The notes beneath the pieces are model-generated. The model was not told the origin of the DNA. It did no database searches and saw only the letters and a program-made list of their open reading frames with translations. From a virus (Duplodnaviria; Caudoviricetes), in the IMG/VR virus record IMGVR_UViG_3300013383_000024, positions 1 through 64,000 of that record: DNA of 64,000 nucleotides; one strand, given 5' to 3'. This document shows positions 5,515 to 33,833 of this stretch, in pieces. The position numbers were made by a program, and so were the translations under genes. Each line of letters starts with the position of its first letter. Position 1 is the first letter of the stretch.

Positions 5515-6579
5515 TTTAGTTTTACTATAAGTCCGCTTACACGGTAACGTGTTTGAAAACGACCCATTGAATTGCTGGAAACCCCTAAAGCTCACAACAC
5601 CACAACGCAGTCCTGAAACAGGCAAACGTGACGGTGACGAAAGTAGAAAAAAGTTGTGAGATGGCATAAGGTTAAATCCTAAGTGCTGTAACAATGGGCA
5701 ATCAGCAGCCAAGCCTCGAACAGAGGAAGGTTCAACGACTAAGCGCCCCGCAAGCGATTGGCGGGGACTGTGGTGGGCACCCCATTGGGGTGAAGATATA
5801 GTCTGGGCTCGCGGGAAATCTGCGAGGGTTTATCCAACGGGGAGTAGCGTCCTGTTCACATCTTAATTAACCTTATAAAATAAATAAGCATGAGTGGAGA
5901 TTTCGTTGAAAGAAAATTTACTGGAAAGGACTTTTGGAAGATTGACGGTTATTGCCTCTGCAGAAGATAGGAGAGGTAAGACTATGTGGAAATGTAGGTG
6001 CGAGTGCGGTAACGTTGTCGTTGTTAGAGCAACGTGTTTAAAATCGGGTGAGACTAAATCGTGCGGTTGTTACCAAAAGGAATGTGCGTCTGACAGAGCC
6101 GCGAAGCACAAAGGTTTTGGCACGAGGTTGTACACTGTTTGGAACAGTATGCGGCAACGTTGTAATAACCCCAACAATCACGCATTTCATAACTACGGGG
6201 GACGTGGGATCAAGATATGCGAGGAGTGGGACGACTTTGGTAAATTCCGCGACTGGGCTATAAAGACTGGTTATGACGATAGCGCATTGCAGGGAGAGTG
6301 TACACTGGATCGTATAGACAACGACGGCCCGTACAGCCCGTCGAATTGCAGATGGGTCAGCATGAGAGAGCAGTCCAGTAACAAAAGAGGCACCCCGCAT
6401 CTATGTTATAACGGGGAGGTTCATACCTTAATGGAGTGGGCTGATATAACCGGCATTAAATACCAAACAATACATAAACGCTATTCTAAGGGTTGGCCTG
6501 CTGAAGCCGTTTTAAAGCCTGTAGGCTGACACGTTGATACAATATATAAATTAAGATGTGATTTACGTTAAACAAAACG
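5515..6579 (+). ncRNA. Group I intron 1 (IA-like), in the RNAP gene
   Basis: P AATTGCTGGAAA, Q AATCAGCAGCC, R GTTCAACGACTA, S AAGATATAGTCT; P1 GGAU/GUCC with U.G; terminal G6579; splicing gives CGQLLQQD-SIDKAKG in frame. Confidence 0.93.
5894..6529 (+). CDS. Intron-encoded HNH-type homing endonuclease
   Basis: FGRLTV..WKCRCECG, YGGRGI, TLDRIDNDGPYSPSNCRW; sits in a loop closed by CACATCTTAATT/AATTAAGATGTG; start possibly TTG 5906. Confidence 0.85.
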   Translation: MEISLKENLLERTFGRLTVIASAEDRRGKTMWKCRCECGNVVVVRATCLKSGETKSCGCYQKECASDRAAKHKGFGTRLYTVWNSMRQRCNNPNNHAFHNYGGRGIKICEEWDDFGKFRDWAIKTGYDDSALQGECTLDRIDNDGPYSPSNCRWVSMREQSSNKRGTPHLCYNGEVHTLMEWADITGIKYQTIHKRYSKGWPAEAVLKPVG

Positions 6580-7419
6580 TCAATAGATAAAGCAAAGGGT
6601 ATTATCTCTAAGCCTATGCCTAAGGCGTGGTATGACTGGAAGACTGCCGTAAACATGCCTGAAGACAAACGTGAGCTGTATACCGCCATTGTTGCGGATA
6701 AGAAGCCTTATTTCATGCGATATATATATCCAGCTTTGATGAAGGACTACAATACATATATAAAGAAATCATCCAGGGCGTGTCTAAGAGAGTTCGGTAA
6801 GACTGTAGATGAATTACTCTCCACTCCCTTCGATGAACTTACCGACAAGCAAACCGCTTTCTTGCGGCAGTATAAGAACAAGATGCCTGTCGGTATGAGC
6901 GACTGTGTTATGAACAAAATATGTCGCAAGTTTGAGGCAGCGTTTGACTCCGCTGAGTCCCGTCGCTTTGGGCTGGATAACTTTGATTATGAGATAATGA
7001 AGTCCGGGGCCGAATATAGCAAAGCCGAGTTTAATAAATTAGCCAAGCTGTATGACGCCTACATAGTTGAAGTAAAAAACGTAGTTGCGTTATCGTCTCA
7101 TTCTCGCTTGTCTTCCGACGAAATTAAGCAGCGGTATGACTCGCTGCATGCACGTTTCACACGTGAGTGTGAAATGGCCTGCCCTAACTCAAAGACCCGC
7201 TGCGATATAATCATTGATCTATGCTATGGCGAGAAAAGAAATAAGAAATTCGTTTGGGATGTGTGCGGGGAACAAATAATCGAGAACCTGCTGGAGAAGA
7301 ATAATCGGATTATCTCCTACCCTATCGAAGATGAGAGCGGAGATATCCGATTCAGAGGGTTGACCTTTACATTAAAACAAATGACCTTAGAGGGGGAATC
7401 TAATGAGTATAATTCTTAA
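6580..7419 (+). CDS. yonO: YonO-like RNA polymerase, exon 2
   Basis: Frame opens at 6580 (SIDKAKGIISKPMPK), continuous with the 6616 ORF; KKPYFMRY motif. Confidence 0.85.
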   Translation, partial: SIDKAKGIISKPMPKAWYDWKTAVNMPEDKRELYTAIVADKKPYFMRYIYPALMKDYNTYIKKSSRACLREFGKTVDELLSTPFDELTDKQTAFLRQYKNKMPVGMSDCVMNKICRKFEAAFDSAESRRFGLDNFDYEIMKSGAEYSKAEFNKLAKLYDAYIVEVKNVVALSSHSRLSSDEIKQRYDSLHARFTRECEMACPNSKTRCDIIIDLCYGEKRNKKFVWDVCGEQIIENLLEKNNRIISYPIEDESGDIRFRGLTFTLKQMTLEGESNEYNS

Positions 7420-8188
7420 TGAAATAAATTGGGCGCAGGACATGAACTCCTGCGCCCAACCGATGCTGGGTAAAAAACCTTTTGAAACTTTATCCCGTAT
7501 GGCCAAATACTACTGTCATGAAGGCATGACCAAGAGCGCTGCTCGTGATGCGCTTGACGTGTTTTTGTTGAAGTGTGACCCTGATGCAAATATTGTCTCA
7601 TGGTCTGATTCTTTAGACAGGGCTTTAAAGAACGGCTATAAGTACCAGCCCATTGAGCTCGATAGTATTGGTGTGTCAGCATCAGAGATCGCAAAAGTGG
7701 ACGAGCTTAAAACAAAGCAGATACGCAGACTCGCTTTTACGCTGCTCTGCCTGTGTAAGTATTGGAATGCTTTTAAACCCGGCAATAATAACTGGGTGCG
7801 GACACCTGATACAGATATTATGCGCATGGCAAATATACACACATCGGTAAAACGGCAATGCGCTTTATTCAGAGAGCTCAGTAATATGGGCTATATTAAA
7901 TTTTCCAGGCAGGTGGACAATCTTAATGTTCAGGTACTTTTTATGGACGATGAACCGCCTGTGCTCTTAATACATAATTTTGACAATCTGGGCTATCAAT
8001 ATTTAAAATATCACGGAGACCCCTATTATTATGAATGCTGCAACTGCGGAGTTACCGAGAAACGAAAAGACTTAAGCTCAAGACCGCCTAAGTACTGCCC
8101 TACTTGCGCCGGTATTATCAAGGCCAAGCAAACAGCCGAAAGCGACAAACGGCGTTACTCTCGGAGGAATATAAATATTCCAAGTTAA
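7403..8188 (+). CDS. Hypothetical protein with possible wHTH and C-terminal zinc ribbon
   Basis: CCNCG..CPTC; overlaps the RNAP stop; RBS GAGGGGG. Confidence 0.7.
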   Translation: MSIILNEINWAQDMNSCAQPMLGKKPFETLSRMAKYYCHEGMTKSAARDALDVFLLKCDPDANIVSWSDSLDRALKNGYKYQPIELDSIGVSASEIAKVDELKTKQIRRLAFTLLCLCKYWNAFKPGNNNWVRTPDTDIMRMANIHTSVKRQCALFRELSNMGYIKFSRQVDNLNVQVLFMDDEPPVLLIHNFDNLGYQYLKYHGDPYYYECCNCGVTEKRKDLSSRPPKYCPTCAGIIKAKQTAESDKRRYSRRNINIPS

Positions 8189-8202
8189 TTTGCGGAAATA
8201 AG

Positions 8203-8242
8203 TACCCCTCAAAAAGCCAGTGTTTTCAATGGTTTGAGGGGT
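8203..8242. other. Inverted repeat/hairpin
   Basis: TACCCCTCAAA...TTTGAGGGGTA; a second hairpin GCGGCCAG...CTGGCCGC lies at ~8277-8305. Confidence 0.55.
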
Positions 8243-8330
8243 ATATGCACTGTGCGATGTGATGATGATGATTATAGCGGCCAGTCTTTTTACAAAGCTG
8301 GCCGCAATACAGAATGAAAGGATGAAGCAT

Positions 8331-8552
8331 TTGATAAAGATAAATGCCGCTGAAAAGCAGGCTATATCAAAGAAATTTCCCCATGTACATATCGTGCGTA
8401 CAATGAAGTCTGACTCCAAGAGGCATCATTACTATTGTGAAGAGCAACGTGATGCTATGCGGTTCCTCCGTGAACTTAGAGGGCAGCTTCCTCGCAAGAA
8501 TAAGAGAAATAGCAAGGGGGCATTTAATGAGCGAGTTAGAACGAAGACCTGA
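8331..8552 (+). CDS. Small basic hypothetical protein
   Basis: TTG start behind GAAAGGA within ORF 8259-8552. Confidence 0.6.
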   Translation: MIKINAAEKQAISKKFPHVHIVRTMKSDSKRHHYYCEEQRDAMRFLRELRGQLPRKNKRNSKGAFNERVRTKT

Positions 8553-9717
8553 TGAAACTGAGCTCGCCCATCACAAACGCCTTATTTACGGTAAGCTTGT
8601 AGATAAGACTTTAGCTGATGTCGATTACTCTGAACTGGCTGAGGAGCTTTATGGGCAGTCATACAGCAGTGACGTTGCGCGACGTATGGCATATGGATCC
8701 CGTAAGACACTCGAACTGATAGAGCGTCAAAGCGAAGATGCATTAGCCGCTGATGGTTTACTCGGTGAGTTAGATATAAAGCGTTTTGAATTGCAGAAAG
8801 AGCGACAAAAGTTTTTTGATTATCGAGCTGCTTTTAATAAGCTGCTTAGAGAGCGCTCTCGGCAGGAAGAACTAAATGACATACTTGTCAAAGCAATCGC
8901 GGATAGCGACCTTCCTGTACTAAATTATATTCCTCACGAGTTTACGCCGTCGGACAATGACTTGTTGGTTAGTCTCAATGATATTCATTATGGTGCTAAC
9001 GTTAAAAATTATTGGAACACGTACAATTCAGAAGTCTGCGCAGAAATGTTTGAGCGCTATATAGATAGGATACTTGAGATTCAACAGATACATAACAGTG
9101 AAAATTGCATCATTTGGTGTAACGGCGATGAAATTAGCGGATCTATTCATCACTCTATCGCTGTGACCAACAAAGAGAATGTAATAGAGCAGATCAAAGG
9201 AGTGTCTGAGCTTATAGCAGAATTTCTTGCCGCACTCAGTCCCTATTTTAAATCAGTAATATTCTTAAGTGTTCCCGGCAATCATAGCCGAATGGATACT
9301 AAGGAGAGAGCTTTGCTCAGCGAAAGACTTGATGATCTTATTGGCTGGTATCTTAATGCCAGGCTACAAACCTTTGAGAACATATTTATAAGCGATAATC
9401 GTATTGATGACACAATGTATCTTATCGATATTCGTGGCAAGCTCTATGTAGGTGTGCATGGAGATTTTGATGAAACGCCTGCTAAGATTCAAGCTATTCA
9501 GACTATGGTTGGTCAACCGATATATGCAGTTCTTGCTGGACATAAGCACCATAACAAAGTAGATGTGATACAGGGTATCAAGGTTGTTATGGGCGGTTCA
9601 TTTATGGGAATGGATGATTATTGTGTCCAAAAGCGAATTTTCGGCAGACCTGAGCAAGCGGTCTGCGTTTGTGACCAAAATGGTATACGCTGCACATATG
9701 ATGTAGCTCTAAATTAA
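8527..9717 (+). CDS. Calcineurin-like metallophosphoesterase (SPbeta YonJ-like)
   Basis: DIHYG, NGD, GNH, HGD, GHKH motifs; ATG 8527 behind AAGGGGG. Confidence 0.85.
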   Translation: MSELERRPDETELAHHKRLIYGKLVDKTLADVDYSELAEELYGQSYSSDVARRMAYGSRKTLELIERQSEDALAADGLLGELDIKRFELQKERQKFFDYRAAFNKLLRERSRQEELNDILVKAIADSDLPVLNYIPHEFTPSDNDLLVSLNDIHYGANVKNYWNTYNSEVCAEMFERYIDRILEIQQIHNSENCIIWCNGDEISGSIHHSIAVTNKENVIEQIKGVSELIAEFLAALSPYFKSVIFLSVPGNHSRMDTKERALLSERLDDLIGWYLNARLQTFENIFISDNRIDDTMYLIDIRGKLYVGVHGDFDETPAKIQAIQTMVGQPIYAVLAGHKHHNKVDVIQGIKVVMGGSFMGMDDYCVQKRIFGRPEQAVCVCDQNGIRCTYDVALN

Positions 9718-9722
9718 AACAG

Positions 9723-9749
9723 AAGCGGAGGCTATTCAGCCTCCGCTTT
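9723..9749 (+). terminator. Intrinsic terminator
   Basis: AAGCGGAGGCT-attc-AGCCTCCGCTT-T. Confidence 0.7.
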
Positions 9750-9882
9750 GTGCGTTATATGGGCGGATTTCTCCTTATGTGGGTCGGTAGACTTCCGGCA
9801 CAATATCGCACTTTCTCAGAACGATTTTAATGCCGAACTTGTCGTATGTCAAGTAAAACACAGAGAAAAAGGAAGTGAATAA

Positions 9883-10350
9883 ATGAATGTAACGAAGAAA
9901 GAGCTGATATTGAGGGTATCTCAGATAATCCGCAGCGCCGGATACCGCAAGACTGTAAAGATACCCAAACATTCTTTTACTATATCAGATAATTGTGGCA
10001 ACACCAACCGCTTTGATGTGACCGGCAGAGTCAAGAAAGTTACCATAGACGAAGCTGATGTTGCTGCTGTCATAGAGGCATGCATAGAGCTTATTTATGA
10101 AACTCTAGCTAAGGGCGACGCGATCAAGCTGAACGGCCTGGGTATATTGGGCGTAAAAACGAGAGCCGCAGGTAAGGTTCGTCGCCTGGACACTAACGAG
10201 ATTGTAGATGTTCCGGAAAGGCGGCTCCCATATTTCGCCGCAAGCGACAAACTCAAAGCAATTGCTAGAGTTAGTGGTAATGGAAGTGACCCTTCAATTT
10301 CTTACTACGAGGAATGTGAGCTCGACGATCCTGAGTTGGACGGTGAGTAA
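9883..10350 (+). CDS. HU/IHF-family DNA-binding protein (YonN-like)
   Basis: TKKELI N-terminus; GDAIKLNGLG..KTRAA..R..T.E...VP.R..PYF..S..LK. Confidence 0.8.
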   Translation: MNVTKKELILRVSQIIRSAGYRKTVKIPKHSFTISDNCGNTNRFDVTGRVKKVTIDEADVAAVIEACIELIYETLAKGDAIKLNGLGILGVKTRAAGKVRRLDTNEIVDVPERRLPYFAASDKLKAIARVSGNGSDPSISYYEECELDDPELDGE

Positions 10351-10352
10351 GA

Positions 10353-11381
10353 ATGGCCGCAATTGATATAAACGTTTCGAGCACTATGTGCCGCAAATGT
10401 GGTAAGGCATACGGCAGACTAAAAGGCAACTTCCCTGTTAATTATGGTCCGCTGTATAAGGGTAACGGATATATTCCCTATTGCCGCAGCTGTATCGATC
10501 AGATGTATGAGAGCTATTTTTCCGAGTGCAAGTCAGAAGCGCTTGCTGTACGTCAAGTATGCCGCAAACTCGACTTATATTGGAATCAAGGCATTTTTAA
10601 TAATGTAGTCAAGCGCAATTCTCAGCGCTCCATGATGACTTCATACATAGCAGCGACAAACTCCCCAAAGTGCGCCGGTAAGTGTTATGACGATACGCTT
10701 CGTGAATATGGCGCTCTTTGGTCATTTGGAATAGGCAGCGTAACCCCTCCTAGGCAAGAAACGACTGACGACGCCGAGGAGCCTGATTGCGATATCCCCC
10801 CTGATGAAATCAAGAGCTTTTGGGGGCCGGGCTACAGCGACTCTATGTACTGGCAACTCAATGAGCGCTATCAGTACTGGCTTGGTCAGTATCCGGACGA
10901 TGCCGAGCTAACTATTGGTGAGGAGGCTCTCCTGCGTCAGGTGTGTAACCTTGAAATCAGCATCGCGCAGTCGCGCTCTCAAAACAAGTCCATAGAAAAA
11001 GAAGTCAATACTCTTAACTCAATTATTGCCAGCCTAAATATTCGCCCTGATAAGAAGAAAGCTGTTGAAGGTTCTCTTAATGAATCCACGCCTTTTGGTG
11101 TGTGGATTAGAAAAATCGAAGACACTCGTCCTATTGCCGAGCCCGATCCTCAGTTTCAAGATATCGATGGCATCAGAAAATATATTACCGTTTGGTTCTT
11201 CGGGCATCTTTGCAAGATGCTTAAAATCAAAAACTCGTACAGCAAATTGTATGAGGACGAGATGGCGAAGTTGCGTGTTGAGCGACCTGAATATGAGGGC
11301 GAAGATGATGACGCTATCATAGAAGATATCTTTGCTCACACAGAACCTCAAGACGATGCTCCGGTGAGTGCCAATGAGTGA
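10353..11381 (+). CDS. Putative terminase small subunit/YonG-like protein with N-terminal Cys cluster
   Basis: CRKC..CRSC; directly upstream of and overlapping terL. Confidence 0.55.
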   Translation: MAAIDINVSSTMCRKCGKAYGRLKGNFPVNYGPLYKGNGYIPYCRSCIDQMYESYFSECKSEALAVRQVCRKLDLYWNQGIFNNVVKRNSQRSMMTSYIAATNSPKCAGKCYDDTLREYGALWSFGIGSVTPPRQETTDDAEEPDCDIPPDEIKSFWGPGYSDSMYWQLNERYQYWLGQYPDDAELTIGEEALLRQVCNLEISIAQSRSQNKSIEKEVNTLNSIIASLNIRPDKKKAVEGSLNESTPFGVWIRKIEDTRPIAEPDPQFQDIDGIRKYITVWFFGHLCKMLKIKNSYSKLYEDEMAKLRVERPEYEGEDDDAIIEDIFAHTEPQDDAPVSANE

Positions 11382-11550
11382 GCGAGAGCATGTATTTTTA
11401 AAGAGTGTTGAATTATGGACGGCGTTCTACAGGGCAAATCCCCAACGATTTGTTGAAGACTATTTACATGTAAAACTTAAACTATTCCAAAAGATACTGA
11501 TTTTCATGATGAACATCAGCAATTTTTTCTGTTACATCGCCGCGAGAGGT
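11374..11550 (+). CDS. terL: Terminase large subunit, exon 1
   Basis: YRANPQRF..L..FQ adenine-binding region ending AARG (first half of Walker A); spliced TerL 572 aa. Confidence 0.88.
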
Positions 11551-11800
11551 TAACACGGCCTCGCCGCATAGTAATATACGGGCAATAAGTGGGCAAAATC
11601 GGTAAACGCTGAGATGCCAATACCGAGGTAAATGTGAAATCACACATCACCGTAACGCATAGGTTGTGAGCGCTATGAGAGCAATAATCAACCCACGAGT
11701 GTCCACCACCCTCGCCTTGGGGGGTGAAAATATATGCTGAACTTGCAGGAAAATGAACCGCAAGAACTTAAAGATAAAAAGCTTTAAGGATAACACATTG
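11551..11800 (+). ncRNA. Group I intron 2 (ORF-less, 250 nt), in terL Walker A
   Basis: P1 GAGGU/GCCUC with U.G; core GTAACGCATAG ... AAAATATATGCTGA; terminal G11800; splicing yields AARG-QGKT. Confidence 0.92.
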
Positions 11801-12078
11801 CAAGGAAAAACATTCCTGTTGGCGATATTTTGCTGTGTTCGCTGCATACTTTTCCCCGGTACCAAAGTAATTATCGCTTCCGGTACACGAGGGCAGAGTT
11901 TAAACATTTTAGAAAAAATTAAAATTGAACTGTTTCCTCGATCTCCGCTCCTTCAGAACGAAGTCGAGGAAATTAAACTATCTGCATCAAATGCGTATGT
12001 ACTATTTAAAAACGGATCGTCTATCAAGGTTGTCACCGCTAGTGATTCTGCTAGAGGCAACCGAAGCACATTGCTGAT
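11801..12078 (+). CDS. terL: Terminase large subunit, exon 2
   Basis: QGKTFLLA...ARGNR; in frame with exon 1. Confidence 0.88.
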
Positions 12079-13124
12079 AAGTTAAATTGTCTAGCCATGC
12101 AGAAATGTATGGTTGTAATCGGGCAAAATCGGTGAAGGCTAAGTAATTAGCAAAACAGTCTAATCAATTAAGGAGAACAATGGCTAAAAAATCATCAACG
12201 GAAGAGTTTAGAAAGAGATTGGAAGATATACATGGCAACCAATTCGAGCTACTGTCAGAGTATGTAAATAACGAAACCAAGGTGCAGCTTCGTTGTCAAA
12301 AATGCGGTAATATTATTTTTAAGCGCCCATCCAAAATCGTTTGCCGCCCATACGAGGGGTGCTATGTCTGTTCGGGCAAAAATCGCTATAAGACAAAAGA
12401 GTCCCTCCAACGAGAAGTAGATGTATTATATCCTGATGAATTTTTAATATTAGGAGATTACCTTGGTGCGCGGAAAAAGACACTCGTAAAAAGAATCCCG
12501 TGCGGTCATACATACGAAGTATCTCCAGATAATTTGTTGCGCGGTAAAGGCTGCCCTAAATGTAATCAGTCGCATTATGCGGACATTGTTGAAGACTACC
12601 TTATTAATAAAGGTATTACCTTCGAGCGAGAAAAGCGGTTTACCGGTTGCCGAAACATTAGAGAGCTTCCTTTTGATTACTATATCCCCGACAGGAATAC
12701 TTGCATAGAGGTCGATGGGCAGTTTCATTATAAATCGTATTATGAGGCTATTAATAATTATGCTGCATTTGAAGCTGTGACCGTGAGAGACAAAATAAAA
12801 ACAGACTACTGTAAGGATAACGGGATTAAACTAATAAGACTTCCGTATTATATGTCGGATCGTTTTCCTGATATTTTAGATTATGAATTATATGCCAACA
12901 CCGAGATAACTCAGTCAACAAATCGGGTGACTGAGTATTGTAACGCATAGAGGGTGACGAAAGAATAATCCCTCCACGAGTGTCCGACACGACCAGCTAT
13001 AGGCTGGCCTGAGCAGGGTTAGCATCTTGCGAACCTAACGTCCATACGAGGGTGAAAATATATGCTGAACTTATAGGAAACTATAAGATCTGTAGGATAA
13101 AAAGCCTACAGGGTAACATATTTG
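12079..13124 (+). ncRNA. Group I intron 3, in terL Walker B
   Basis: Core similar to intron 2 (GGGCAAAATCGGT, GTAACGCATAG, CCACGAGTGTCC, GGTGAAAATATATGCTGAACTT); P1 GCUGAU/GUCUAGC; terminal G13124; splicing yields LLI-VDE. Confidence 0.9.
12180..12950 (+). CDS. Intron-encoded endonuclease, zinc-finger repeats plus Vsr/DUF559-like PD-(D/E)xK domain
   Basis: CQKC, CYVC, CPKC; FEREKRF..PFDYY..IEVDGQFHY..RD..K..YC..NGIKLIRLPY; RBS AAGGAG. Confidence 0.8.
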   Translation: MAKKSSTEEFRKRLEDIHGNQFELLSEYVNNETKVQLRCQKCGNIIFKRPSKIVCRPYEGCYVCSGKNRYKTKESLQREVDVLYPDEFLILGDYLGARKKTLVKRIPCGHTYEVSPDNLLRGKGCPKCNQSHYADIVEDYLINKGITFEREKRFTGCRNIRELPFDYYIPDRNTCIEVDGQFHYKSYYEAINNYAAFEAVTVRDKIKTDYCKDNGIKLIRLPYYMSDRFPDILDYELYANTEITQSTNRVTEYCNA

Positions 13125-14388
13125 AGTTGATGAGTGCCGAATGGTCGACAAAGAGACCATAGGCACCGTGCTTCGAAAATTTTTAACAGACGCCCGACAT
13201 CCGGGCTATATAGACAATCCTAAATACAGTCATCTTGTTGAGCGGAACAAAGAAGTCTATTTAACTTCTGCTTATTATAAAGATAACTGGAGTTACGATA
13301 AGGTCCGCGATTATGCTGAGCATATGGTTTGTGAGGACAGTTATTTTGTATGTGGCTTCCCTTACCAACTCTCAGTAAGTGAGGGGCTTTTGAACCGAGA
13401 AGCCGTCGCTGACGAGATGTCTGAAGCAGATTTCAACGAGATAACCTGGTCAATGGAAATGGAGTGCTTATTCTGGGGAGATGAGAGTGGAACATTCTTT
13501 AGTTATGATTCCATCTCTAAAACGCGGAAAATCAAGTACCCCATGTTACCATCTAGGCTTGCCGGGCTTCTCAATAACAGTGCTAAGATTCGCGTCCCTG
13601 CGAAGCTTCAGGGAGAAATACGCATTCTTTCAGCTGATATCGCATTGATGTCCAGTAAGAAGAACCGTAATGACGCTTCCGCTTTGTTTGTTAATCAGAT
13701 GCTTCCGTCTCGCGGCGGACGCTATACAAGCAATATTGTTTATAGTGACAGCGCCGAAGGATTACGTACAGATGAGCAAGCTCTTATGATACGTCGCTTG
13801 TACGAAGAGTTCCAGTGTGACTACATAGTGCTGGACGCAAACGGACTCGGACTTGGCGTATATGACGAGCTTGCGAAGGACATGGTTGATCCTGACACGG
13901 GCGAAATATACCCTGCCCTGTCATGCTGCAATAATCAGGAGATGGCCGACCGGTGCGTATCACGCTCTGCTGATAAGGTTATTTGGGCAATCAAGGCCAA
14001 CCCGGTAATCAACTCCGAGTGTGCGCTGTTATTGCGCGAAGCGTTCCGCAGTGGCAAGATCAGGCTTTTGATACCCGACCAGGACGGCGACTCCGCCCTT
14101 GCAGATATTAAAGGATACGGTTCGCTCAGCGAGACTGAGCGGCTTTCTCTGCGCATGCCATACGTACATACTACATTACTGATCGATGAGCTCATTAAAC
14201 TGCAGCACGAAGAAAGCAGCGGAAGAGTTAAGATCAGCGAAAAGTCTACGATGCGCAAAGACCGGTACTCCAGTCTTAGCTACAACTATTATGTCGCGAC
14301 TCAACTTGAGGCTAAGCTTGGGAAGAAGCAGAGCGCAAACTTCCAAGTCAGTGACATTTTTAGATTTCGCGCTCCAAAAATACGATAG
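13125..14388 (+). CDS. terL: Terminase large subunit, exon 3 (ATPase C-terminus and RNase H nuclease)
   Basis: VDECRM, LTSA coupling motif, SADIA, LDANGLG, RKDRYSS. Confidence 0.9.
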
Positions 14389-14403
14389 AAAAGAGGTGAG
14401 AGT

Positions 14404-15513
14404 TTGGAAGATAGCCATAGGACAAATATAAAATTAGGTGAACCCGCACTTGACAGCTCAGATGGTGCGGCTCACGCAAAGAGAGCACCGCTGGATATGG
14501 CATCTACGAAAACCTTCCGTCTGTCGAAGAACTTTGCCGCTCTGAATCATCTAATACTCAGAGACTTAAACAACAATCCGACCGCACCTACATTTTATAA
14601 GTATTCTAAAGACGACATCGCGACATATCTGCAGAATCCGTATACATACGAGAAGCAGCTACGAGATGCCGTTGTTTATATTTATGGGGCAAGTTCACAT
14701 TTCAGACGGTTAATACAGTACTTTGTCAGTCTGTCTGATCTTGCGTATGTTGTATCCCCTTATAAGGTTGATCCTTCAAAGGCTAATGTGAAGACTATAA
14801 ACAATAACTATCGAAAAGTCCTAAACACATTATCGTCGATGTCTGTAAAGACGCAGTTCCCTAAAATACTTTCCGTATGTTTAAGAGAAGATTGTTTTTA
14901 TGGAACGCTTTGGGTCACAGCCGACAGCATAACCGTTCAACAGCTCCCCTCTGACTATTGTAGTATCTCGACGATTGAGGGCAATGTTCCTAACGTGTCT
15001 TTTGATTTTTCGTACTTCAGTTCAAGAGAGAGTGATTTACCTTTTTATCCTTCTGAGTTTACCACTAAATACAATCAATATAAGAGCAACAGAAATATGA
15101 GATACCAGGAGCTCGACTCTCCTACCTCGTTTGCTGTTAAGTGTAATAACGACATACTTAGTTACTCAATTCCCCCGTTTGCCGGTATCCTTAGAGAAAT
15201 TTATGATATTGAAGATTATAAATCCTTAAAGCAAACAAAGACGGCGCTTGAGAATTATGCTATGTTGGTTATGAAGCTGGGTCTGAGTGACGATGGAGAC
15301 TGGCAAATAGATTACAACAAAGCGGTAGACTTTTGGCAAAATCTCGACGCAGTGTTGCCGGAAGAAATCGGTTCTGTTTTATCTCCGATGGATATTGACA
15401 AAATCAGTTTTGAGCGTAGCAATACTGCCGACACCGATACTGTTGCTGAAGCGGAGCAAAATCTGTTTACCGCAGCAGGTGTATCATCATTACTATTTAA
15501 TAATGCGAAGGCT
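14404..15513 (+). CDS. Portal protein (YonE-like), exon 1
   Basis: Position between terL and protease; TTG behind AAGAGGTGA; ends AGVSSLLFNNAKA; spliced product 511 aa. Confidence 0.8.
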
Positions 15514-16491
15514 TAACAAGATAGGTCTCTTATGCAGCAATGCATATTAACAACCCATTGAATTGCTGGAAACCCCTTAGAGCAGCGCCGACCACAACAT
15601 AGGCATGAAAACAGCCAAGTGTGACGGTTTGAAAACGGCGTTGATTGGGCAATCAGCAGCCAAGCTCCGAACAGGAGAAGGTTCAACGACTATCCCGTAA
15701 GGGAGTAGGGTCGCAAGCGATTGGCGACCCGAAGTGGTGGGCACCCCATTGGGGTGAAGATATAGTCTGTGCTTAATAGAAATATTAAGAGAAAGGAGTA
15801 GCGTCCTTTAAAATATATTAAGATTTGAGGTTCCAATTGAAAAAAGAAGATTTAACTGGGCACAATTTTGGAAGACTGACTGCAATTGCATCCTACGAAG
15901 ATCATATTCAGCGGAGCGGGAGGCATAAAACCCAATGGCTATGTCGTTGTTCTTGCGGCAACGAAGTCGTCGTTCAAACATTTAATTTGAAAAGCGGAAA
16001 TACAAAGAGCTGCGGATGTCTTAATGCCGAAAATATAAAAACACAAAGCGTAACGCATGGGGATAGGCATACTAGGCTGTACCGAATTTGGTGCGGCATG
16101 AAATCTCGCTGTTACGATACGGCATGCCCCAGTTACGAGCGATATGGTCGCAGAGGAATTATGATGTGTGACGAATGGAAGGAGTCCTATCAAACCTTCA
16201 AAGACTGGGCAGTACAGCGCGGATATAACGACGAACTGTCTATCGACAGGGTCAACAATGACGAGGGGTACTCTCCGGAGAATTGCAGATGGGCCACGCA
16301 GAAAGAGCAAGCCAACAATCGTTCATCCTCTAAGCACTTCCTGTATGAAGGACGAGATGTCACGATTTCCGAACTATCTGAGATAACAGGCATCAAGTAC
16401 CATACACTTTTTGCAAGGTTAAATACTTTACATTGGACAGTAGATGATGCTGTAAAGACCCCAGTTAGAACCACAACTTAATAACACACAG
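15514..16491 (+). ncRNA. Group I intron 4 (IA-like), in the portal gene
   Basis: Same P/Q/R/S elements as intron 1; P1 AGGCU/GGUCU with U.G; P9.0 UGUG/CACA then G16491; splicing yields NNAKA-SANALSLSIKAD. Confidence 0.93.
15825..16481 (+). CDS. Intron-encoded HNH-type homing endonuclease (paralog of 5894-6529)
   Basis: FGRLT..WLCRCSCG, YGRRGI, SIDRVNNDEGYSPENCRWAT..QANN. Confidence 0.85.
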   Translation: MRFQLKKEDLTGHNFGRLTAIASYEDHIQRSGRHKTQWLCRCSCGNEVVVQTFNLKSGNTKSCGCLNAENIKTQSVTHGDRHTRLYRIWCGMKSRCYDTACPSYERYGRRGIMMCDEWKESYQTFKDWAVQRGYNDELSIDRVNNDEGYSPENCRWATQKEQANNRSSSKHFLYEGRDVTISELSEITGIKYHTLFARLNTLHWTVDDAVKTPVRTTT

Positions 16492-16917
16492 AGCGCAAAC
16501 GCATTATCATTATCCATAAAGGCAGATCAAGCTATTACATTTGGCATTGTTAAAGGAATAGAAGATGTTGTGAATCGTTATATTCAAAGCCAGGGTTACG
16601 GGAAGAATTTCAGAGTCACATTCTTGGATTGCAGCCCGTTTAACCGCGAGGAATTAGGTAGCCAATATTTAAAGGCGTGCCAGTATGGTGTGCCAATGGT
16701 GTCTTATTACTGTGCGTCTCAAGGCTTAGGTCAGGCAGAAATTGACTCCATGAATTTCTTGGAGAATAAAGTCTTGAATATCAAAGCCGATTTCATTCCC
16801 TTGAAGAGTTCCTCAACCCAAAGCAGCGACAATATTGATAATCCTGATGGCGGTGCTCCACGCAAAGATGATGAGGATTTATCCGAGAGCGGAATTCAGC
16901 ATAGAGAGGATGAATAA
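16492..16917 (+). CDS. Portal protein, exon 2
   Basis: Open frame from 16492; C-terminal PLKSSST..GGAP acidic tail typical of portals. Confidence 0.8.
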   Translation, partial: SANALSLSIKADQAITFGIVKGIEDVVNRYIQSQGYGKNFRVTFLDCSPFNREELGSQYLKACQYGVPMVSYYCASQGLGQAEIDSMNFLENKVLNIKADFIPLKSSSTQSSDNIDNPDGGAPRKDDEDLSESGIQHREDE

Positions 16918-23630: not shown

Positions 23631-23635
23631 TAAGA

Positions 23636-23668: not shown

Positions 23669-23694
23669 CGTATATGAATAAGGAGGACACCATT

Positions 23695-24725: not shown

Positions 24726-24773
24726 TCATAGACCGCTGCGTAATGCAGCGGTCTTTCCTATGGAGCACACAAC

Positions 24774-25214: not shown

Positions 25215-25225
25215 AAGGAGAAATT

Positions 25226-25891: not shown

Positions 25892-26496
25892 TAAATGCGA
25901 GCGCTCTGCAGAGAAAGGCAGAAGCATGGAGCAGAACGCCCGAAGGCCAAAGACGCATGAAGGAAGTTATTGACCGCTATCGAAAAGAAGGTCGTACAAC
26001 GACCGCCGCCGGGTCGAGGTTAGATTCTCGCGCAATGCTTATTGAAGCTGCGGATAAGATGATGCTCATTCTTCGTAGAGCTGCTATGGAAGCGAACCTG
26101 CCCAGTTCCGTAATGAAGCATTTCGACAGCATGACATACGGAAACCCTATAGCATTGAGCGACGGAACATATATGCTTGGAATTTATTTCACCGACGACC
26201 TCCATCGTGATTCGCTTGAAAATGATTATACAAATTATGAGGGTGTAGATAACATTATAGCCCTCTTTAATAACGGCGCTCATGCAGAGGACTATGTTTA
26301 CGGCTGGTGGAATGGTCACTCTCCATCGGGTGAGGCGATTGCCCACTCTATGACCGGCACAGAAGACTATGCGTGGGTACGAAGCAAAAAAGATCGAGAG
26401 GGTCTTTATTTTATACAGCAAGCCGTAGCTGATTTCAATGGAAATTACGGCTCTCAATATAATGTCACAGCTACCGCCGGTAGCGACTATACGTGA
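25888..26496 (+). CDS. Hypothetical tail-module protein
   Basis: ATGA-coupled ORF. Confidence 0.55.
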   Translation: MINASALQRKAEAWSRTPEGQRRMKEVIDRYRKEGRTTTAAGSRLDSRAMLIEAADKMMLILRRAAMEANLPSSVMKHFDSMTYGNPIALSDGTYMLGIYFTDDLHRDSLENDYTNYEGVDNIIALFNNGAHAEDYVYGWWNGHSPSGEAIAHSMTGTEDYAWVRSKKDREGLYFIQQAVADFNGNYGSQYNVTATAGSDYT

Positions 26497-26500
26497 TTTT

Positions 26501-26529
26501 ATTAACCCCGGTCAGTGACCGGGGTTAAT
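26501..26529. terminator. Perfect 14-bp inverted repeat before the tape measure gene
   Basis: ATTAACCCCGGTCA-g-TGACCGGGGTTAAT. Confidence 0.55.
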
Positions 26530-26548
26530 TACATTCTTTGATAAATAG

Positions 26549-27778
26549 GTGGTGAGGATTTTGGCTACAGGATCTAATTCCGATATTGAACTATTAGCCG
26601 GACTACAAGGTGGAGGTTCGATAGCCGGAGCGTCCGGCAGAAGAATTCAGCACGAACTTGAAAATATAATTAATCGCATAAACAAAAATCCTGCCGGGGT
26701 CAAGATCACACTCAGCAAAAACGGTGAGACGCTACTCAAACAGGATATTGCCAAGGCTGTAGAGTCTGTTAAGATTAAAAGCTTTAATACTACTGCTGCT
26801 GTAGCTAAACTGAAAACAGATATTCAGGCAGCACTTGCTGGAGTTGCAATACCTGTTGGGGCTGTGGCTGCCGGTGCTGCTACCGGAGCAACAGCTACCG
26901 CTCAAGCACAAACCACAACAGGAACTGTAAATGCCGCAGAGATTGACGGAATCACTAAAGCCGTCAAATCGTTTAACGCTCAATTATTGATATCAAATCG
27001 GCGCATAAAAACTGTTAAGGCGACTGCGTCTGGTCTCAAAGAGGCGTTAGACGGTGCGTCGAGTTTAGCTGGAGGCAGCACATCTTCAGGAAGTCCTGCT
27101 AAGAATCCCAGCAGCACTATGGCTAGCCTCCAGCAGATTATCTCGTTGAGCAAGAAGGCAGAATCGCTGCTGAGGAATAATCCGCGCATTGTTAGCACGG
27201 GGTACGGAGATACTCTTAATTCTGTAATTGAGCAACTTAAAACGGGTTCAGTAGGCAAAGACGTTTTTAAGCAACTAAAGAACGACGTACTCCAAGTGGA
27301 AGTCGGGCTTAGAAATGCAGGATTACAGGGTAAGACATTATGGTCTGTCTTAAAGTCCGGTTATGAAAAGTTCGGTGGTTGGGCGCTCATAACGAAGTCT
27401 ATGATGGCAGCGGCAAATTCCGTGCGTCAAATGATAGATAACGTTACGCAGCTGGATGCAGCAATGACCGAATTGCGCAAGGTTACCGACGAAACAAATG
27501 CGACTTATGAGCAGTTCTTCTCGGATGCTACGGTGCGTGCGAGGAGTTTGGGCGCGACCGTTACCGATACGATCAACGCCACGGCGGATTTTGCACGTCT
27601 TGGATATAACATTGACGATGCTGCTACTCTCGCCGATACGGCAATTATATATAAGAATGTCGGCGACGGTATAACCGACATTGGTGTCGCCTCGCAAAGT
27701 ATTATATCTACATTAAAGGGTTTCAGCCTTGAAGCGGAAGATGCAACGCATGTTGTCGATGCATTTAACGAAGTGGGT
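26549..27778 (+). CDS. Tail tape measure protein, exon 1
   Basis: TP901-type core LDAAMTELRKVTD..FARLGY..DAFNEVG; start possibly TTG 26561; spliced product about 2430 aa. Confidence 0.88.
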
Positions 27779-27914
27779 AAATGTTTATGCCCAGCGGCGT
27801 AGTAATACGTCGTAAGCACATAGCTATAACGGTTAAAGGCCGGAGACGGTTCAGACCGTGGAAAGACTTAGTGTTTGTATATATAATGAATATGAATGAA
27901 AGGGTACAATATAA

Positions 27915-28109
27915 ATGAATAACAAAGATCTTTGGAATAATACAATTACCGTTCTTTTTAGAGAACCGAACGGAGAACTCATAAAAAACAAGTGTTATAC
28001 TAAAACTTTTCGGCGCTTCGCATTTGATAACTTACTCGGTGCCGCTGTCGGAGTATTAATTGGAGAACTAGCTTATGATCTCATACAATATATCGAGAAT
28101 CTGCTTTAA
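27915..28109 (+). CDS. Intron-borne 64-aa protein with hydrophobic C-terminal helix
   Basis: RBS GAAAGGG; LLGAAVGVLIGELAY segment; 42-nt 3' overlap with the antisense gene. Confidence 0.5.
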   Translation: MNNKDLWNNTITVLFREPNGELIKNKCYTKTFRRFAFDNLLGAAVGVLIGELAYDLIQYIENLL

Positions 28110-28430
28110 CAGTTCTGTGTCGCCAGGGTACGCTTGTGCTACTTTGTTTATTTCTATATCCAGCAGTCTGTAGATGATATTAATTATGCCGTTTGCAGTT
28201 AGGTTTTCTACGGTTAGATGTTCGGATAATTTACTTGTGATTTTGCAGATTATATCAGCGCTTTTCTTTGAAAGTGTTACTTTCCTGTCGGGATTCTTCT
28301 CCAGCTCCGATAATCTTTGCCGACATATACATACAAGTTCGTCAAAGGTTAGCGTATCTAGTTCTCCCAAAGTAACATGGTCGAGCTCACCCAAAGTTAG
28401 GCTATCTAAATCTCCTATCGTTAACGTCAT
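28068..28430 (-). CDS. Intron-borne antisense 120-aa protein with N-terminal TLGELD repeats
   Basis: RBS GAGGTG 6 nt before ATG 28430; MTLTIGDLDSLTLGELDHVTLGELDTLTFDEL...; own promoter. Confidence 0.8.
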   Translation of the reverse strand: MTLTIGDLDSLTLGELDHVTLGELDTLTFDELVCICRQRLSELEKNPDRKVTLSKKSADIICKITSKLSEHLTVENLTANGIINIIYRLLDIEINKVAQAYPGDTELLKQILDILYEIIS

Positions 28431-28460
28431 ATCGAGCACCTCAAGAAATAATATACACAA

Positions 28461-28489
28461 ATTGTAACACAAAATCATTATATATACAA
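28461..28489 (-). promoter_or_regulatory. sigma-A promoter of the antisense intron cargo gene
   Basis: Minus strand TTGTAT-N17-TACAAT with TGn extended -10. Confidence 0.7.
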
Positions 28490-28684
28490 ACATTATTTAT
28501 CCCGAGAGACTGTAATGCCCACCATGGTAACATGGTGGGCTTCGCTATGCCCCCATATAAATATGGGGTGAAGATCCAGTCCGAACTGCGGCTATAATCT
28601 TAAAATGAAACCGCAGAACGAGGTAGAAATGCCTCGTCGCCGCGCAAGCGGTCAGTACCGTGGCAACGGGAAAGTAACAGATTG

Positions 28685-31600
28685 AATAATTTTGCCATCT
28701 CCTCGGCGGGCATTGGCGATGCGTTAACCCGTTCAGCAGCTTCTTTGTCTGCTGCGAATAATACCATGGAAGAGTCCATTGCGCTTATTACCGCAATGAA
28801 CACCACTCTCCAAGACCCCGAAAAAGTGGGTACAACATTAAAAACAATCACTATGTATCTTCGCGCTTCCAAAGTTGAGCTTGAAGAAGCCGGTGAAAGC
28901 ACAGAAGGTATGGCAGAGTCGACCTCAAAACTGAGAGATTCGGTACTTGCTCTTACAGGGCAAAAGGTTGACATAATGCTTGGTGATGGAAAGACATATA
29001 AATCTACATATCAAATCCTCAAAGAGATATCTCAGGTCTGGTCGTCTATGGCCGATATTGACCAGGCAGCATTGCTGGAACTTCTTGGCGGCAAGAGGAA
29101 TGCAAACGCTACTGCAGCATTAATTCAAAACTTTGGAATTGCTGAACAGGCACTTGAGTCTGCAACCAACTCCGCCGGTTCTGCCGCTGCCGAAAATGAG
29201 AAATATCTCGATTCTATTCTTGGTAAGGTAGCTCAGTTTAACGCCGCATTCGAGACATTATCTGCAACTGTTATTGATGCAGATTTCTCAAAGGGCGTAG
29301 TTGATGCGGGTACTACCATACTCGACATTATAACTAAACTTATTGATGGTCTCGGCACGCTTAATACGCTGGCTATGGGCGTAGGCGCTGCACTTAGTCT
29401 TGGAAAGGTTAATTCAATATTCTCGCCTTTCCAAGTTGGGGTTAAAGCAAATTCAAATGGCGGCGATTTCACCAGCAGCTTCAGCGTCGGCTTTACGTCC
29501 CAGTTGTCCCGGGACAAGGCCGGTATTGATGCGTACAATGCTGCACTTCAAACATATAATAGCGAACGCAAGAAAGCTGAAAAGGATAAGGACGCACTTA
29601 TCAAGGCGCAGAACGATTTCAAAGACGCTACCGAAGCTGCGAAAGCGAGCGTTTCCGGCAGCACTAAAGAACTAATCAATCTCCATGCCGCGCAGGAGAA
29701 GGGCGTCTCTGCTACTAACAGCAGCTCTAAAGCACTCATTACGCTCCGAGCCAAGACGATTGCCGCAACAGTTGCCACTACAGCTTTAAACATGGCAATT
29801 TCCCTTGGTTTATCTTTAGCTATTCAAGGGATCGTAACCGGAATTGACTATTTGATACATAGAGAAGAGCGCATGGCTGAGGCGGCTGAAGAAGCAAGTG
29901 ATTCCGTCTCGAAAATTAGTGCGGAGGCTAAGGAACTTAAATCCTCTACTCAGAGCGCAGCAACCACAATACAGGCGTTTGGAAACCAAATCAAATACGT
30001 TAATGGCAAATTAACTTCTGACACGTTATCTACAGAGCAAATAACCCAGTATTCTGAGGCGGTCAAAAGTTTGACCGAAATGTATCCGTCGCTCATATCC
30101 GGGTACGATGCCGAGGGTAATGCCATTATTAGCCTTAGCGGCGGATACTCAAGCCTAACTAAGAATATTGATGCCGCATATAAAGCCAAGCTTCTTTTGA
30201 TGAATGCTGAGCTCGACGAAAACATGCCCGACATTGTTAAAGATGCATCTTACAAAACGTCATCCCTTACCACACAACTTAAAAACAGTCGGGCTTTAGT
30301 TGAGATGGCGAAACGCTTGGCTAAAGACCCGCATAACAAGACAGATAACATCTCGGTTTCCGAGAGAGATCTCGTTGATTGGCTTTACGGCGAAGACAGT
30401 GCCGAGTTAGCAGTTAATCTAGAGAAGCTCGACCCGTCACGTGCTTTGAATCAGCTTATCGCAAAAGAGGGCGGTAAATGGTTTGAGGACAATAAGTATT
30501 TAGGTGTTACAATTGCCACCGATTCCATGAAAGGATGGGCAACTGGTATTAAGCAAGTGTTTTCCAGTGAGGATGGTGGTAAGAAATTAGATAGTTCCGC
30601 CATCGCGAAATACTTAAGTTATGTAATCAGTCCAGAAAAATTGGAATCTGAAGTTTCTCAGCTTGAAGAACAGATCAAAGCCAAGTGGGCAGCAACAAAT
30701 CAAAACTTACTAAGCTATTTTTCGACAGATGAAAATTTTGTCCAAGTCAACGACGCTTTTAGCGGGCTATTAAGCAACATAATAAATGGAGCTGACTGGA
30801 ATGCGCTTATCGATGGAGATGTTAGCTGGGACAGCATTAAGGATTATGTTCAGACTAACCTTGTTAATGTTTTTAACAAGATCGACCTTGCTAGTGTCCA
30901 GGCGGATATGAAAAGCTTGTTATCCGGCGGTGCTGATTTAACGGCAGATCAGTTTACTGCGGTTTTTGACAACGTAAAGAACGCTTTACTTGAAGCGACT
31001 GGCGGTGATCAAAACCAGGTAAAAGTAATTTTGTCTAGCATTGAAAATGCTATGTCAGTCACTGCTGATGATATTATAAAAATAAACAAGCAGGTCTATG
31101 AGGGGGTCGACGGGGGCGTGAGTGCCCTTAAGATTCTTACTGAAGCGACCAATAACTGGACTACGACTGAGAAAGAAGCAATTGCTACCGGTATTGAGGG
31201 CATTACAGATGAAACCGACGCGGTAAATACGTTTATCGAAGAGATCAAAAATGGCAACCCCACGATTGCCGAACTGCAGGCTTTAATCATAAAGACGTCG
31301 GACGGCAGCCTTGAAGCTGCCGGATCATTCAGTGAGTGGAAAGATCAGTATAAAGAACTTGTCAACGATATCAGCGGGACAAGGTCTTTTAATGATATTG
31401 TTGAAAGTTTCGGCACTATAAAAGAAGCAACCGATTCGGCCTATGAATCATTCCTGAAATTAAACGGCGGTGTGACTCAAGAGGAGTACGAGTCCTGGGA
31501 GCCCGATGAATATTACAACAAGAGTGTTGAGGCATTTAATAAATTCAAAGCGCTTTATAATGAGGGGCTTATTGGTAGACGAGAGTTTGCTCAGTATCAG

Positions 31601-33346
31601 AAGTATTTTGGTTCAGAGAGCTTAGAAGAAACCGCTCAATTCTTTACCGAGCAGGGTGATTATTATATCGAAGGTAAAGAGGGTTTACAGAATTGGATCA
31701 GTAAGATCCACGAGATGAATCAAAGCGGTTTGCTTTCTAAAGATCTTGCTTCTATTGAATTTCTTGCTGACGGCAAGTCCTCATTCCATTTCGATGTCAG
31801 CCGTATTAACGAGCTCGCCGCCGCCCTCAATATGACAGAGGAACAGGCGTGGAACTTTGTGAGAGCAATACGCGCATACTCTGAGAGTTGGGAGTCTATG
31901 AGCGTAGAAGACCTAAACAACGATTTTAAAGATGTCGGAGTAATCAAAAAAATAGGCGAGGAATTCGTCGTCTCATATGAAGATATCGCAAACTATACCG
32001 GTCTATCGCGTGCTGAGATAGAGCTGCTGATAAATAAGCTAAACGAGCTTAATGAATATGACGGCAAGCTTAAGCTTGACCTAGGGCTTGCCGGAGAACT
32101 TGAGGCTGCTGGAAATGAGTTGGCAAAAATAGATTCGATACTGAGAGAGCACAACATTTCATCGTATTTTGATATCGACGAAGGTATTTTTACCGTCACT
32201 CAAAGCATGATTGATGGCATGCTTGAACAGCTGAGTCCTGAGAGAGTCAAACAGTATCTTGTTCAGTGGAGTAAGATTTCCGGCGTTGTAATTCCAACTA
32301 ATTTAAAGATCGACGGAAAAAAGGTGTCCGAGGAGGTAAAGAAGGCCACCGCGCAAGAAGACGGTACTGCCACGATCGAAGTAAAACTCTCTACAGCTAC
32401 AGCAGAGCAGGCGGATGAGCTTAAGGAAAAGCTGATAGATCTCGGTATGACGGATGTTAAAGTAGATATCGAAGACAACACAGTGACGGTTCTCGGTAAT
32501 ATAAAAGAGGTACGAAAAGCTCTATCAGGTCTCCAGCAAGCGAGTTATAACGTGTTATTAGCAGGAATAGGACGCACTCCAGCCAGTCGGTCAGGCATTA
32601 ATATGACTCCATCTCCAGTGTCGGGCGGTCTTGGACTCAATATACCAGGGATAAACGCGACTGGTACGCAAAACGCTTCACCTGGGTTATCTCTTCTTGG
32701 CGACGAACCCTCGCCTACCGGAGCGCCTCGTCCGGAGCTTGTTGTTTCGGGCAACGAAGCATATCTTGCCGGAGTTAACGGTCCGACTATTGGACGGCTC
32801 AACAAAGGCGACATAGTCTATACATATAGTCAAACCAAAGAGATACTCAAAGGTGTTAATGGCAAAGTTAGATTCCCCGCGTTTGCCTCCGGCATAGCAA
32901 ACTTAGGGCATAATGGCAGTATAGGTGCGGGCTCTTTATGGTCGAGTGTTGCTTCATCAAGCAGTAGTTCTGCTGGTGGCAACGACTTTGAAAGTTTGTA
33001 TAAATACCATCAGCACCTTTTGAAGATGGAACAAGAGAGCCAACAGGATTATCTTAATTGGCTCAATAAGGCATACAAAGATGCGTATGCGCAAGGTGTC
33101 ATAGAGTTGGACGATTATTACAAATATCAAGAAGAGGTACACGATCTCATCCGCGAACTCGTCCAAGATAATCTCGACGACGCTGAGCATTACATCGATA
33201 TGCTTGGTCATTATGATGGTAGTGAAACGCAGATAATCGCTATCTATCAAGACTTGATGAGGGCAATTGAGAAGGAGATCTCTGCTGCTCGTGCTGCTGG
33301 GTTGAATGACAACGACGAGTACATTCAAAATTTACAAAAACAGTGG
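28685..33346 (+). CDS. Tail tape measure protein, exon 2
   Basis: NNFAISS..KSTYQIL..ELLGGKRNAN; long helical ORF; 3' boundary uncertain by a few nt. Confidence 0.85.
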
Positions 33347-33833
33347 AAACAACCACACCACCTGTATTCCTAAAGAGTACAGAAAACCCATTGAACTGCT
33401 GGAAACCCCTAAAGCTATCCGTACCACAGCATAAGGATGAAATGCCTAAGTGCGACGGTTACGAAAGTAGAAAGAAACGGATAGATGGCGCAAGGTTAAA
33501 TCCTAAACGCTGCAAAATGGGCAATCAGCAGCCAAGCCTCGAACAGAGGAAGGTTCAACGACTATCCCTTAAGGGAGTAGGGTCGCAAGCGATTGGCGAC
33601 CCGAAGTGGTGGGCACCCCGTCAGGGTGATGATATAGTCTCCTCTGCATAGAAATATGCAGATGTTCGTTAATCGGGCTGATATATTGTAGCGAAATATA
33701 TTGAAGATAATAATTATAGTGCTATAAACAAACATTTATTGATTAGTTAATAAATCAATAAATGAAAAAGGTATATACATATTTAATCACAATAATACCC
33801 ATTTAAAGTTTATAGCTGCGTAATTATTGAAGG
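33347..33833 (+). ncRNA. Group I intron 6 (IA-like, ORF-less), in the tape measure gene; splice sites non-canonical or uncertain
   Basis: AACTGCTGGAAA, AATCAGCAGCC, GTTCAACGACTA, GATATAGTCT, close to introns 1 and 4; removal joins LQKQW to (W)QYRDEI in frame. Confidence 0.85.

Follow-up and report, generated by a model that had tools for sequence, protein, structure and literature searches.

The window analyzed here covers the initial 64 kb of a 99,391-bp phage contig from IMG/VR (IMGVR_UViG_3300013383_000024; CheckV completeness, 84%). Its late region is SPbeta-like and encodes a YonO-type single-subunit RNA polymerase (RNAP; Pfam RdRP, PF05183), a YonF-like terminase large subunit (TerL), a portal protein, and a very long tape measure protein with a lytic domain. 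Judged by the RNAP, the nearest isolates, at ∼44% identity, are the Enterocloster phages PMBT24 and CB457/CB473 and the Clostridium phage c-st; RNAP relatives occur on 75 IMG/VR contigs, most of them at 60–73% identity. We are confident that six mobile group I introns interrupt these genes, one each in RNAP and portal and two each in TerL and tape measure. An earlier reading made from the letters alone (the sequence-only reading) had proposed six introns in these four genes and given their coordinates, which the ribozyme and junction evidence bears out. When the introns are removed, four uninterrupted open reading frames (ORFs) of 915 (RNAP), 575 (TerL), 512 (portal), and 2437 (tape measure) codons result, and the spliced exons are free of frameshifts and stops.

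The last base of all six 5′ exons is U, and the last base of all six introns is G. Every intron contains a guide, read from the sequence, that is complementary to the 5′ flank, lies no more than 30 nt away, and places a G opposite the splice-site U. Translation that continues into an intron soon meets an in-frame stop, as had been predicted; stops were found after 11, 1, 3, 1, 8, and 2 codons for introns 1–6, respectively. The proposed division into three lineages also holds, in that self-BLAST groups introns 1, 4, and 6 (lineage A) and introns 2 and 3 (lineage B, linked by their 3′ ends) and leaves intron 5 by itself (lineage C). Homologs that are not colinear across the predicted junctions had been named as evidence that would speak against introns; the homologs are colinear across every junction.

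Covariance models, proposed in the sequence-only reading as a check, recognized half of the elements. Full-length matches to the Rfam family Intron_gpI (RF00028), all above the gathering score, cover 5512–5826 (73 bits), 15503–15789 (91.7 bits), and 33358–33661 (88 bits) and correspond to introns 1, 4, and 6. Introns 2, 3, and 5 gave no Rfam match, even in narrow scans, and relaxed thresholds over 11530–11820 and 27760–28700 returned only noise. The lineage B core was modeled on alignment A1, which consists of eight sequences (introns 2 and 3 and their relatives). The model contains P3, P4, P5, P6, P7 (the pseudoknot), P7.1 directly after P7 together with a 2-bp P7.2, P8, P9, and P9.1. In this model, 98.1% of cells are paired, compared with 34–44% when the partners are slid by 1–3 columns. 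Compensatory changes on both sides were seen at 26 of the 51 pairs of the model, in which the P3/P7 pseudoknot is counted, and no shuffle attains the observed values.

The helices of intron 5 were read from the sequence and comprise P1 (UGGGU with GCCCA), P2, P3, P4, a GAGA-capped P5, P7 (GACUG with CAGUC) and the hairpin that follows it, P8, P9, and three 3′ hairpins. The P6 loop holds ∼580 nt of cargo, closed by a 16-bp stem (27874–27889 with 28477–28492). RNAalifold was applied to three cargo-deleted cores, taken from the window and from two related loci, L102 and L098 (L numbers denote loci used for comparison). It paired 285 of 296 cells with 20 compensatory pairs and recovered P1–P6, P7.1, P8, P9, and P9.1–9.2; the pseudoknotted P7 was identified by eye only. 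Introns 2, 3, and 5 share an extra helix after P7 (P7.1), which, on these models, suggests an IA-like subgroup.

Two other classes of element were considered and rejected. Inteins are incompatible with a stop within 1–11 codons of every 5′ junction, and no Hint or intein matches were obtained. For group II introns, there was no Rfam match at E values up to 10 in 5000–35000 and no reverse-transcriptase ORF. A lineage B motif at window position 61313 was also rejected as a seventh copy, being a chance match inside an ORF. The features of the four genes are collected in Table 1.

Table 1. Exons, introns, and intron-borne genes of the interrupted late genes (window coordinates unless a locus is given; A1, alignment of introns 2 and 3 with relatives)
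Feature	Coordinates	Strand	Evidence and remarks
RNAP exon 1	3610..5514	+	Pfam RdRP PF05183; 41% identity to Enterocloster phage PMBT24 RNAP up to 5514
Intron 1, lineage A, 1065 nt	5515..6579	+	Rfam 73 bits; core 5515-5826; nuclease gene 3′ of P9
Intron 1 homing-endonuclease gene, 211 aa, HNH-type by PHROG	5894..6529	+	phrog_374, E 1.3e-67
RNAP exon 2	6580..7419	+	PMBT24 alignment resumes at residue 591; phrog_35857 colinear over both exons
TerL exon 1, ends inside Walker A (...ARG)	11368..11550	+	phrog_15503 positions 35-95
Intron 2, lineage B, 250 nt, no ORF	11551..11800	+	P3-P9.1 core with P7.1 in A1
TerL exon 2, Walker A GKT to Walker B ...STLL	11801..12078	+	Terminase_6N; phrog_15503 positions 97-187
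Intron 3, lineage B, 1046 nt, phase 2	12079..13124	+	3′ core alignable in A1 with intron 2 and relatives
Intron 3 endonuclease gene, 256 aa, zinc fingers and C-terminal nuclease-like part	12180..12950	+	phrog_559, phrog_9084, phrog_7140; DUF4379
TerL exon 3, Walker B IVDE and nuclease domain	13125..14388	+	Terminase_6C, phrog_26582; one high-scoring segment pair with exon 2 in L018, L019
Co-conversion-like tract	L018:3555-4200 vs window 12064-13700	n.a.	78-89% identity over ~600 nt; 99-100% elsewhere
Portal exon 1	14404..15513	+	phrog_2739 positions 32-355
Intron 4, lineage A, 978 nt	15514..16491	+	Rfam 91.7 bits; core 15514-15789
Intron 4 homing-endonuclease gene, 218 aa, HNH-type by PHROG	15825..16481	+	phrog_374, E 4.6e-70
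Portal exon 2	16492..16917	+	phrog_2739 positions 384-495; gap-free junction
Tape measure exon 1	26549..27778	+	phrog_4211 positions 563-721; Sundance alignment to ...FNEVG
Intron 5, lineage C, 906 nt	27779..28684	+	Helices read from sequence; RNAalifold on relatives
Intron 5 cargo ORF, 64 aa, hydrophobic C-terminal half	27915..28109	+	Intact, equal length in L102; dN/dS 0.25
Intron 5 cargo ORF, 120 aa, acidic TLGELD-like repeats, own ribosome-binding site	28068..28430	-	63% identical homolog in L102 intron; dN/dS 0.06
Tape measure exon 2	28685..33367	+	phrog_4211 from position 722; Sundance alignment from NNFA...
Intron 6, lineage A, 466 nt, no ORF	33368..33833	+	Rfam 88 bits; core 33368-33661, then 172-nt AT-rich tail
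Tape measure exon 3, coiled coil and lytic domain	33834..35231	+	phrog_4211 positions 2233-2396; endolysin PHROGs

The intron-less RNAP of PMBT24 aligns with the window up to 5514 and resumes at 6580 without a gap. P1 of intron 1, as read from the sequence, pairs GGAU/UU (the slash marks the splice site) with AAGUCC. Approximately 66 of the 75 IMG/VR relatives span the intron 1 site in a single high-scoring segment pair, and five carry an insertion of ∼1.04 kb at the same residue; two of these five share the ribozyme and nuclease sequence. The RNAP ORF has no ATG, GTG, or TTG start. A CTG start lies 7 nt past a GGAGGG ribosome-binding site (window 3597–3612), and the aligned first codon is CTG in 46 of 62 relatives.

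Both TerL junctions are gap-free against the TerL proteins of Sundance and KKP_3916. Intron 2 lies inside Walker A (...ARG/QGKT) and intron 3 inside Walker B (...STLL/IVDE). Insertion at conserved catalytic or structural motifs such as these is typical of homing elements. In intron 2, P1 pairs GAGGU with GCCUC. Its blastn relatives lie in the tape measure genes of the C. difficile phages phiCD211 and phiCDIF1296T, Arcanobacterium phage TPWB06, and Caldibacillus phage CBP1, with further relatives in Alicyclobacillus phage MMB025's gene for DNA polymerase and in a Staphylococcus phage. The ORF of intron 3 is placed in the P5 loop and runs through P4′ and P6, with its stop codon in the 5′ strand of P7. 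In the portal gene, the endonuclease ORF of intron 4 stops 10 nt short of the 3′ splice site.

A second, near-identical contig (L018) shows that these insertions are polymorphic. Its upstream part is 99.8% identical to the window and keeps intron 2 (99.6% identical). Intron 3 is missing, with no indel at the predicted junction, and the contig ends with the exact ligated-exon sequence across 15513/16492, an empty site for intron 4. Divergence between the two sequences is clustered from ∼15 nt upstream to ∼600 nt downstream of the intron 3 site, where identity falls to 78–89% before returning to 100%. This pattern looks like what co-conversion during homing would leave. At locus L019, TerL and portal are both uninterrupted (59% and 71% identity, respectively). 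The TerL gene of L020 has three insertions of ∼210–270 nt (L020:1696–4181), located at the intron 2 site, at approximately residues 265–270, and at 394/395; the insertion at the intron 2 site is a 71% identical copy of intron 2.

The tape measure proteins of Sundance and L098 read ...FNEVG/NNFA... across junction 5 without a gap. Intron 5 has no nuclease gene; its P6 loop instead contains two convergent ORFs, a sense ORF of 64 amino acids and an antisense ORF of 120 amino acids, both of which are intact in the intron of L102 (L102:4955–5530). The 64-residue product has no family match. The 120-residue product matched no Pfam, PHROG, PADLOC, or NCBIfam family and has no Atlas neighbor, and its AlphaFold2 model (predicted local distance difference test score of 62) is too weak for a fold search. 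The TLGELD-like repeats at its N terminus (28340–28430, minus strand) resemble repeats of a tail-module protein encoded at 41162–41599 on the plus strand (pairwise BLASTP E value of ∼1e-5). The core of the L102 intron (L102:4748–5648) is ∼95% identical to that of intron 5, yet it is inserted at tape measure residue 462/463 rather than at 410/411. Neither has an insertion at the other's site: L102 is continuous at 410/411 and the window at 462/463 (about 28831). Apart from an 8-nt 5′ flank, the one that pairs with the guide, the two sites have little in common, and the change of site is compatible with guide-directed, reverse-splicing-like switching. At L098, which is more distantly related, a lineage C intron is also located at 462/463, and it carries a conventional zinc-finger nuclease gene. 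We tentatively consider, and would not yet favor, the possibility that intron 5 has exchanged its nuclease for a two-gene accessory cassette under purifying selection (the membrane-like 64-residue product and the acidic repeat protein of 120 residues) and moves by its guide sequence, in a reverse-splicing-like manner, and not by a nuclease. A blastn search of GenBank phages with the intron 5 core gave no match, and neither did a tblastn search with the last 200 residues of tape measure exon 2.

Introns have a hot spot in the tape measure gene, with at least three insertion sites. In L098:3960–5573, a ∼22-nt micro-exon lies between two introns, which belong to different lineages; the first of them carries a zinc-finger nuclease gene like that of intron 3. 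The tape measure gene of Thomasclavelia phage TR-TP1 has two nuclease-bearing interruptions.

The 5′ splice site of intron 6 was placed at 33367 in this analysis, where P1 presents its U.G pair, and the intron end at 33833 was kept from the sequence-only reading. The tape measures of L098 and L011 are continuous across the intron 6 site. The reading frame of exon 3 does not open until 33831, and its first start codon comes at 33906. The segment 33840–33905, upstream of that first start codon, is conserved tape measure sequence that aligns with the L098 protein. Because this segment is conserved and yet has no start codon upstream, splicing to 33834, or possibly to 33837, is required. Intron 6 might instead end at 33661, in which case the tape measure would stop nine codons further on and a gene of its own would encode the lytic C-terminal part. 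The Rfam alignment is indeed complete at G33661, and 33662–33830 resembles AT-rich intergenic DNA. However, in the lineage A introns 1 and 4 the 3′ splice sites, fixed by empty sites and homologs, lie far downstream of the Rfam model end, past the nuclease ORF, and a separate lytic gene would leave the homology of 33840–33905 to a continuous tape measure with no start codon ahead of it. We regard this shorter form of intron 6 as highly improbable.

Several observations weigh against six group I introns in the form proposed here. The group I assignment of introns 2, 3, and 5 rests on structure models drawn in this analysis, and the P10 pairing is weak or absent in several introns. For intron 6, the 3′ splice site retains a 3-nt uncertainty (33833 or 33836, both G), and the best homolog, L098, has a 7-residue gap at junction 6. 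The endonucleases have no Pfam or NCBIfam match, and their HNH label comes from the names of PHROG families. One alternative to splicing is that the genes are truly split, with endonuclease insertions yielding separately translated fragments that assemble after translation. Phages are known in which genes are split around a free-standing endonuclease; this genome encodes a free-standing HNH paralog as well, and RNAP exon 2 has an ATG 12 codons past the junction. This arrangement is nevertheless close to untenable: two of the insertions (introns 2 and 6) are entirely without an ORF; in TerL exon 2, portal exon 2, and tape measure exon 3, coding sequence is already conserved ahead of any start codon; and a group I core, bounded correctly by U and G, is present in every insertion.

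Alternatively, at least one element could be a decayed, splicing-incompetent intron that leaves its host gene dead and the phage or prophage defective or helper-dependent. Introns 2, 5, and 6, none of which has an endonuclease gene, would be the likeliest cases. Consistent with such decay, the AT-rich tail of intron 6 contains no detectable nuclease remnant, the intron 5 site is empty in the relatives examined, and the CheckV estimate falls short of a complete genome. On the other side, all core helices are intact, substitutions relative to relatives are compensatory or lie in loops, and the exons have kept their reading frames. Intron 2 is nearly unchanged in L018, and ORF-less group I introns that splice efficiently are known from phage tail genes (PMC3706429). 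Decay of this kind is very unlikely, and six introns competent for splicing remain the preferred reading.

The endonuclease ORFs of introns 1, 3, and 4 match phage homing-endonuclease PHROGs. Those of introns 1 and 4 are paralogs (44% identical). Searches of Protein Data Bank sequences with the endonucleases gave nothing usable; the intron 4 enzyme showed a weak match to PacI (E value of 0.08). A third paralog, 40–44% identical to the intron 1 and intron 4 enzymes, is free-standing and located on the minus strand at genome positions 79314–79946 (L100:15290–15976), between the genes for dnaG primase and DNA polymerase III alpha. Beyond the window, a GIY-YIG endonuclease ORF divides nrdD into two ORFs (genome 69783–70758, minus strand; L100:5783–6758) and adjoins a weak Intron_gpI match (20.6 bits). 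We take this interruption to be a probable seventh group I intron.

The analysis shows the ribozyme identity of the introns, their junctions, the colinearity, and a polymorphism of presence and absence; splicing and homing are inferred. By analogy with established group I biology, each intron would be transcribed within its host gene and fold into a P1–P9 ribozyme. Two guanosine-initiated transesterifications would then excise it, from the U.G pair of P1 to the terminal G, and restore intact mRNAs for the YonO-type RNAP, TerL, portal, and tape measure. Unspliced RNA would give truncated products only, because a stop codon lies within 11 codons of each 5′ splice site. Introns 1, 3, and 4 most likely spread when their nuclease cuts intron-less alleles of co-infecting relatives and the intron is copied in during repair; the presence/absence polymorphism and the clustered flanking divergence support such homing by these endonucleases. 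Introns 2 and 6 are without a nuclease gene, and intron 5 would have lost its nuclease and carries two small conserved genes.

The introns resemble those known from phages of Firmicutes (the SPO1 DNA polymerase gene, SPbeta bnrdE/bnrdF, and Staphylococcus phage Twort) in their self-splicing-type core, in the HNH-type (here by PHROG) or zinc-finger nuclease ORFs of peripheral loops, in insertion at conserved motifs, in patchy distribution among relatives, and in the presence of several introns per genome. The host genes of those classical introns function in nucleotide metabolism or replication, whereas here they are a YonO-type RNAP and three morphogenesis genes; the probable nrdD intron of this genome corresponds to the classical case. 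Introns in packaging and structural genes have precedents. Bacillus phage Silence has a TerL intron with a nuclease gene (PMC4599081), Cluster J mycobacteriophages have group I introns in capsid and tail genes that are spliced in late infection, and Tuc2009 has a capsid intron (PMC3706429). Cluster J phages and Silence also have group I introns, with or without a nuclease, in virion structure or packaging genes. They have one or two such introns, whereas this phage has five in packaging and tail genes and one in RNAP.

High intron density has also been described. For Jug gut jumbo phages, a mean of 18.5 group I introns per genome is reported; their terL is split two- to three-fold, and of 76 predicted introns, 37 had support from metatranscriptome reads (PMC12880540). 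Their genomes are 360–402 kb, their introns are mostly ∼200 nt, and their predicted hosts are Bacteroides or Phocaeicola (PMC12880540). The present phage is likewise a gut phage with split essential genes, but it is ∼99 kb, SPbeta-like, and falls in an Enterocloster-phage neighborhood. Its intron density is comparable to or higher than that of Jug phages (7 in 99 kb with the probable nrdD intron counted, 6 of them within 28 kb). The claim of the sequence-only reading that such density in transcription and morphogenesis genes is unusual was therefore overstated, since introns in terL, capsid, and tail genes and phages with many introns per genome had been published (PMC4599081; PMC3706429; PMC12880540). 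The PMBT24 paper does not mention introns, and a limited literature search yielded no account of an intron interrupting a YonO-type polymerase gene or a portal gene. This genome is a dense instance of a familiar selfish mobile element, not a new mechanism, and it adds new host genes to a known phenomenon. The unusual cargo of intron 5 and its site polymorphism most deserve further work.

One consequence concerns annotation. Polymerase, packaging, and tail genes of SPbeta-like gut phages can appear as fragments of unknown function, and two of the three intron lineages (B and C) escape the standard Rfam model. The expectation that automated annotation would fragment such genes agrees with what was seen in the TR-TP1 tape measure, in phiCDIF1296T, in the MMB025 DNA polymerase gene, and in fragment-type PHROG families, several of which are apparently such gene fragments. 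The phage clade is also a natural system for studying intron gain, loss, and co-conversion, as one near-identical contig (L018) differs by two introns. It is conceivable in principle, though speculative, that late transcription is gated through splicing of the polymerase gene.

Two further features were noted in the part of the genome beyond the window. A large serine recombinase gene on the minus strand (genome 65124–66800; L100:1124–2800) suggests a temperate lifestyle. A skipping-rope RNA (RF02924) was matched on the minus strand at genome positions 87756–87835 (L101:5756–5835) with 74 bits, well over the gathering score.

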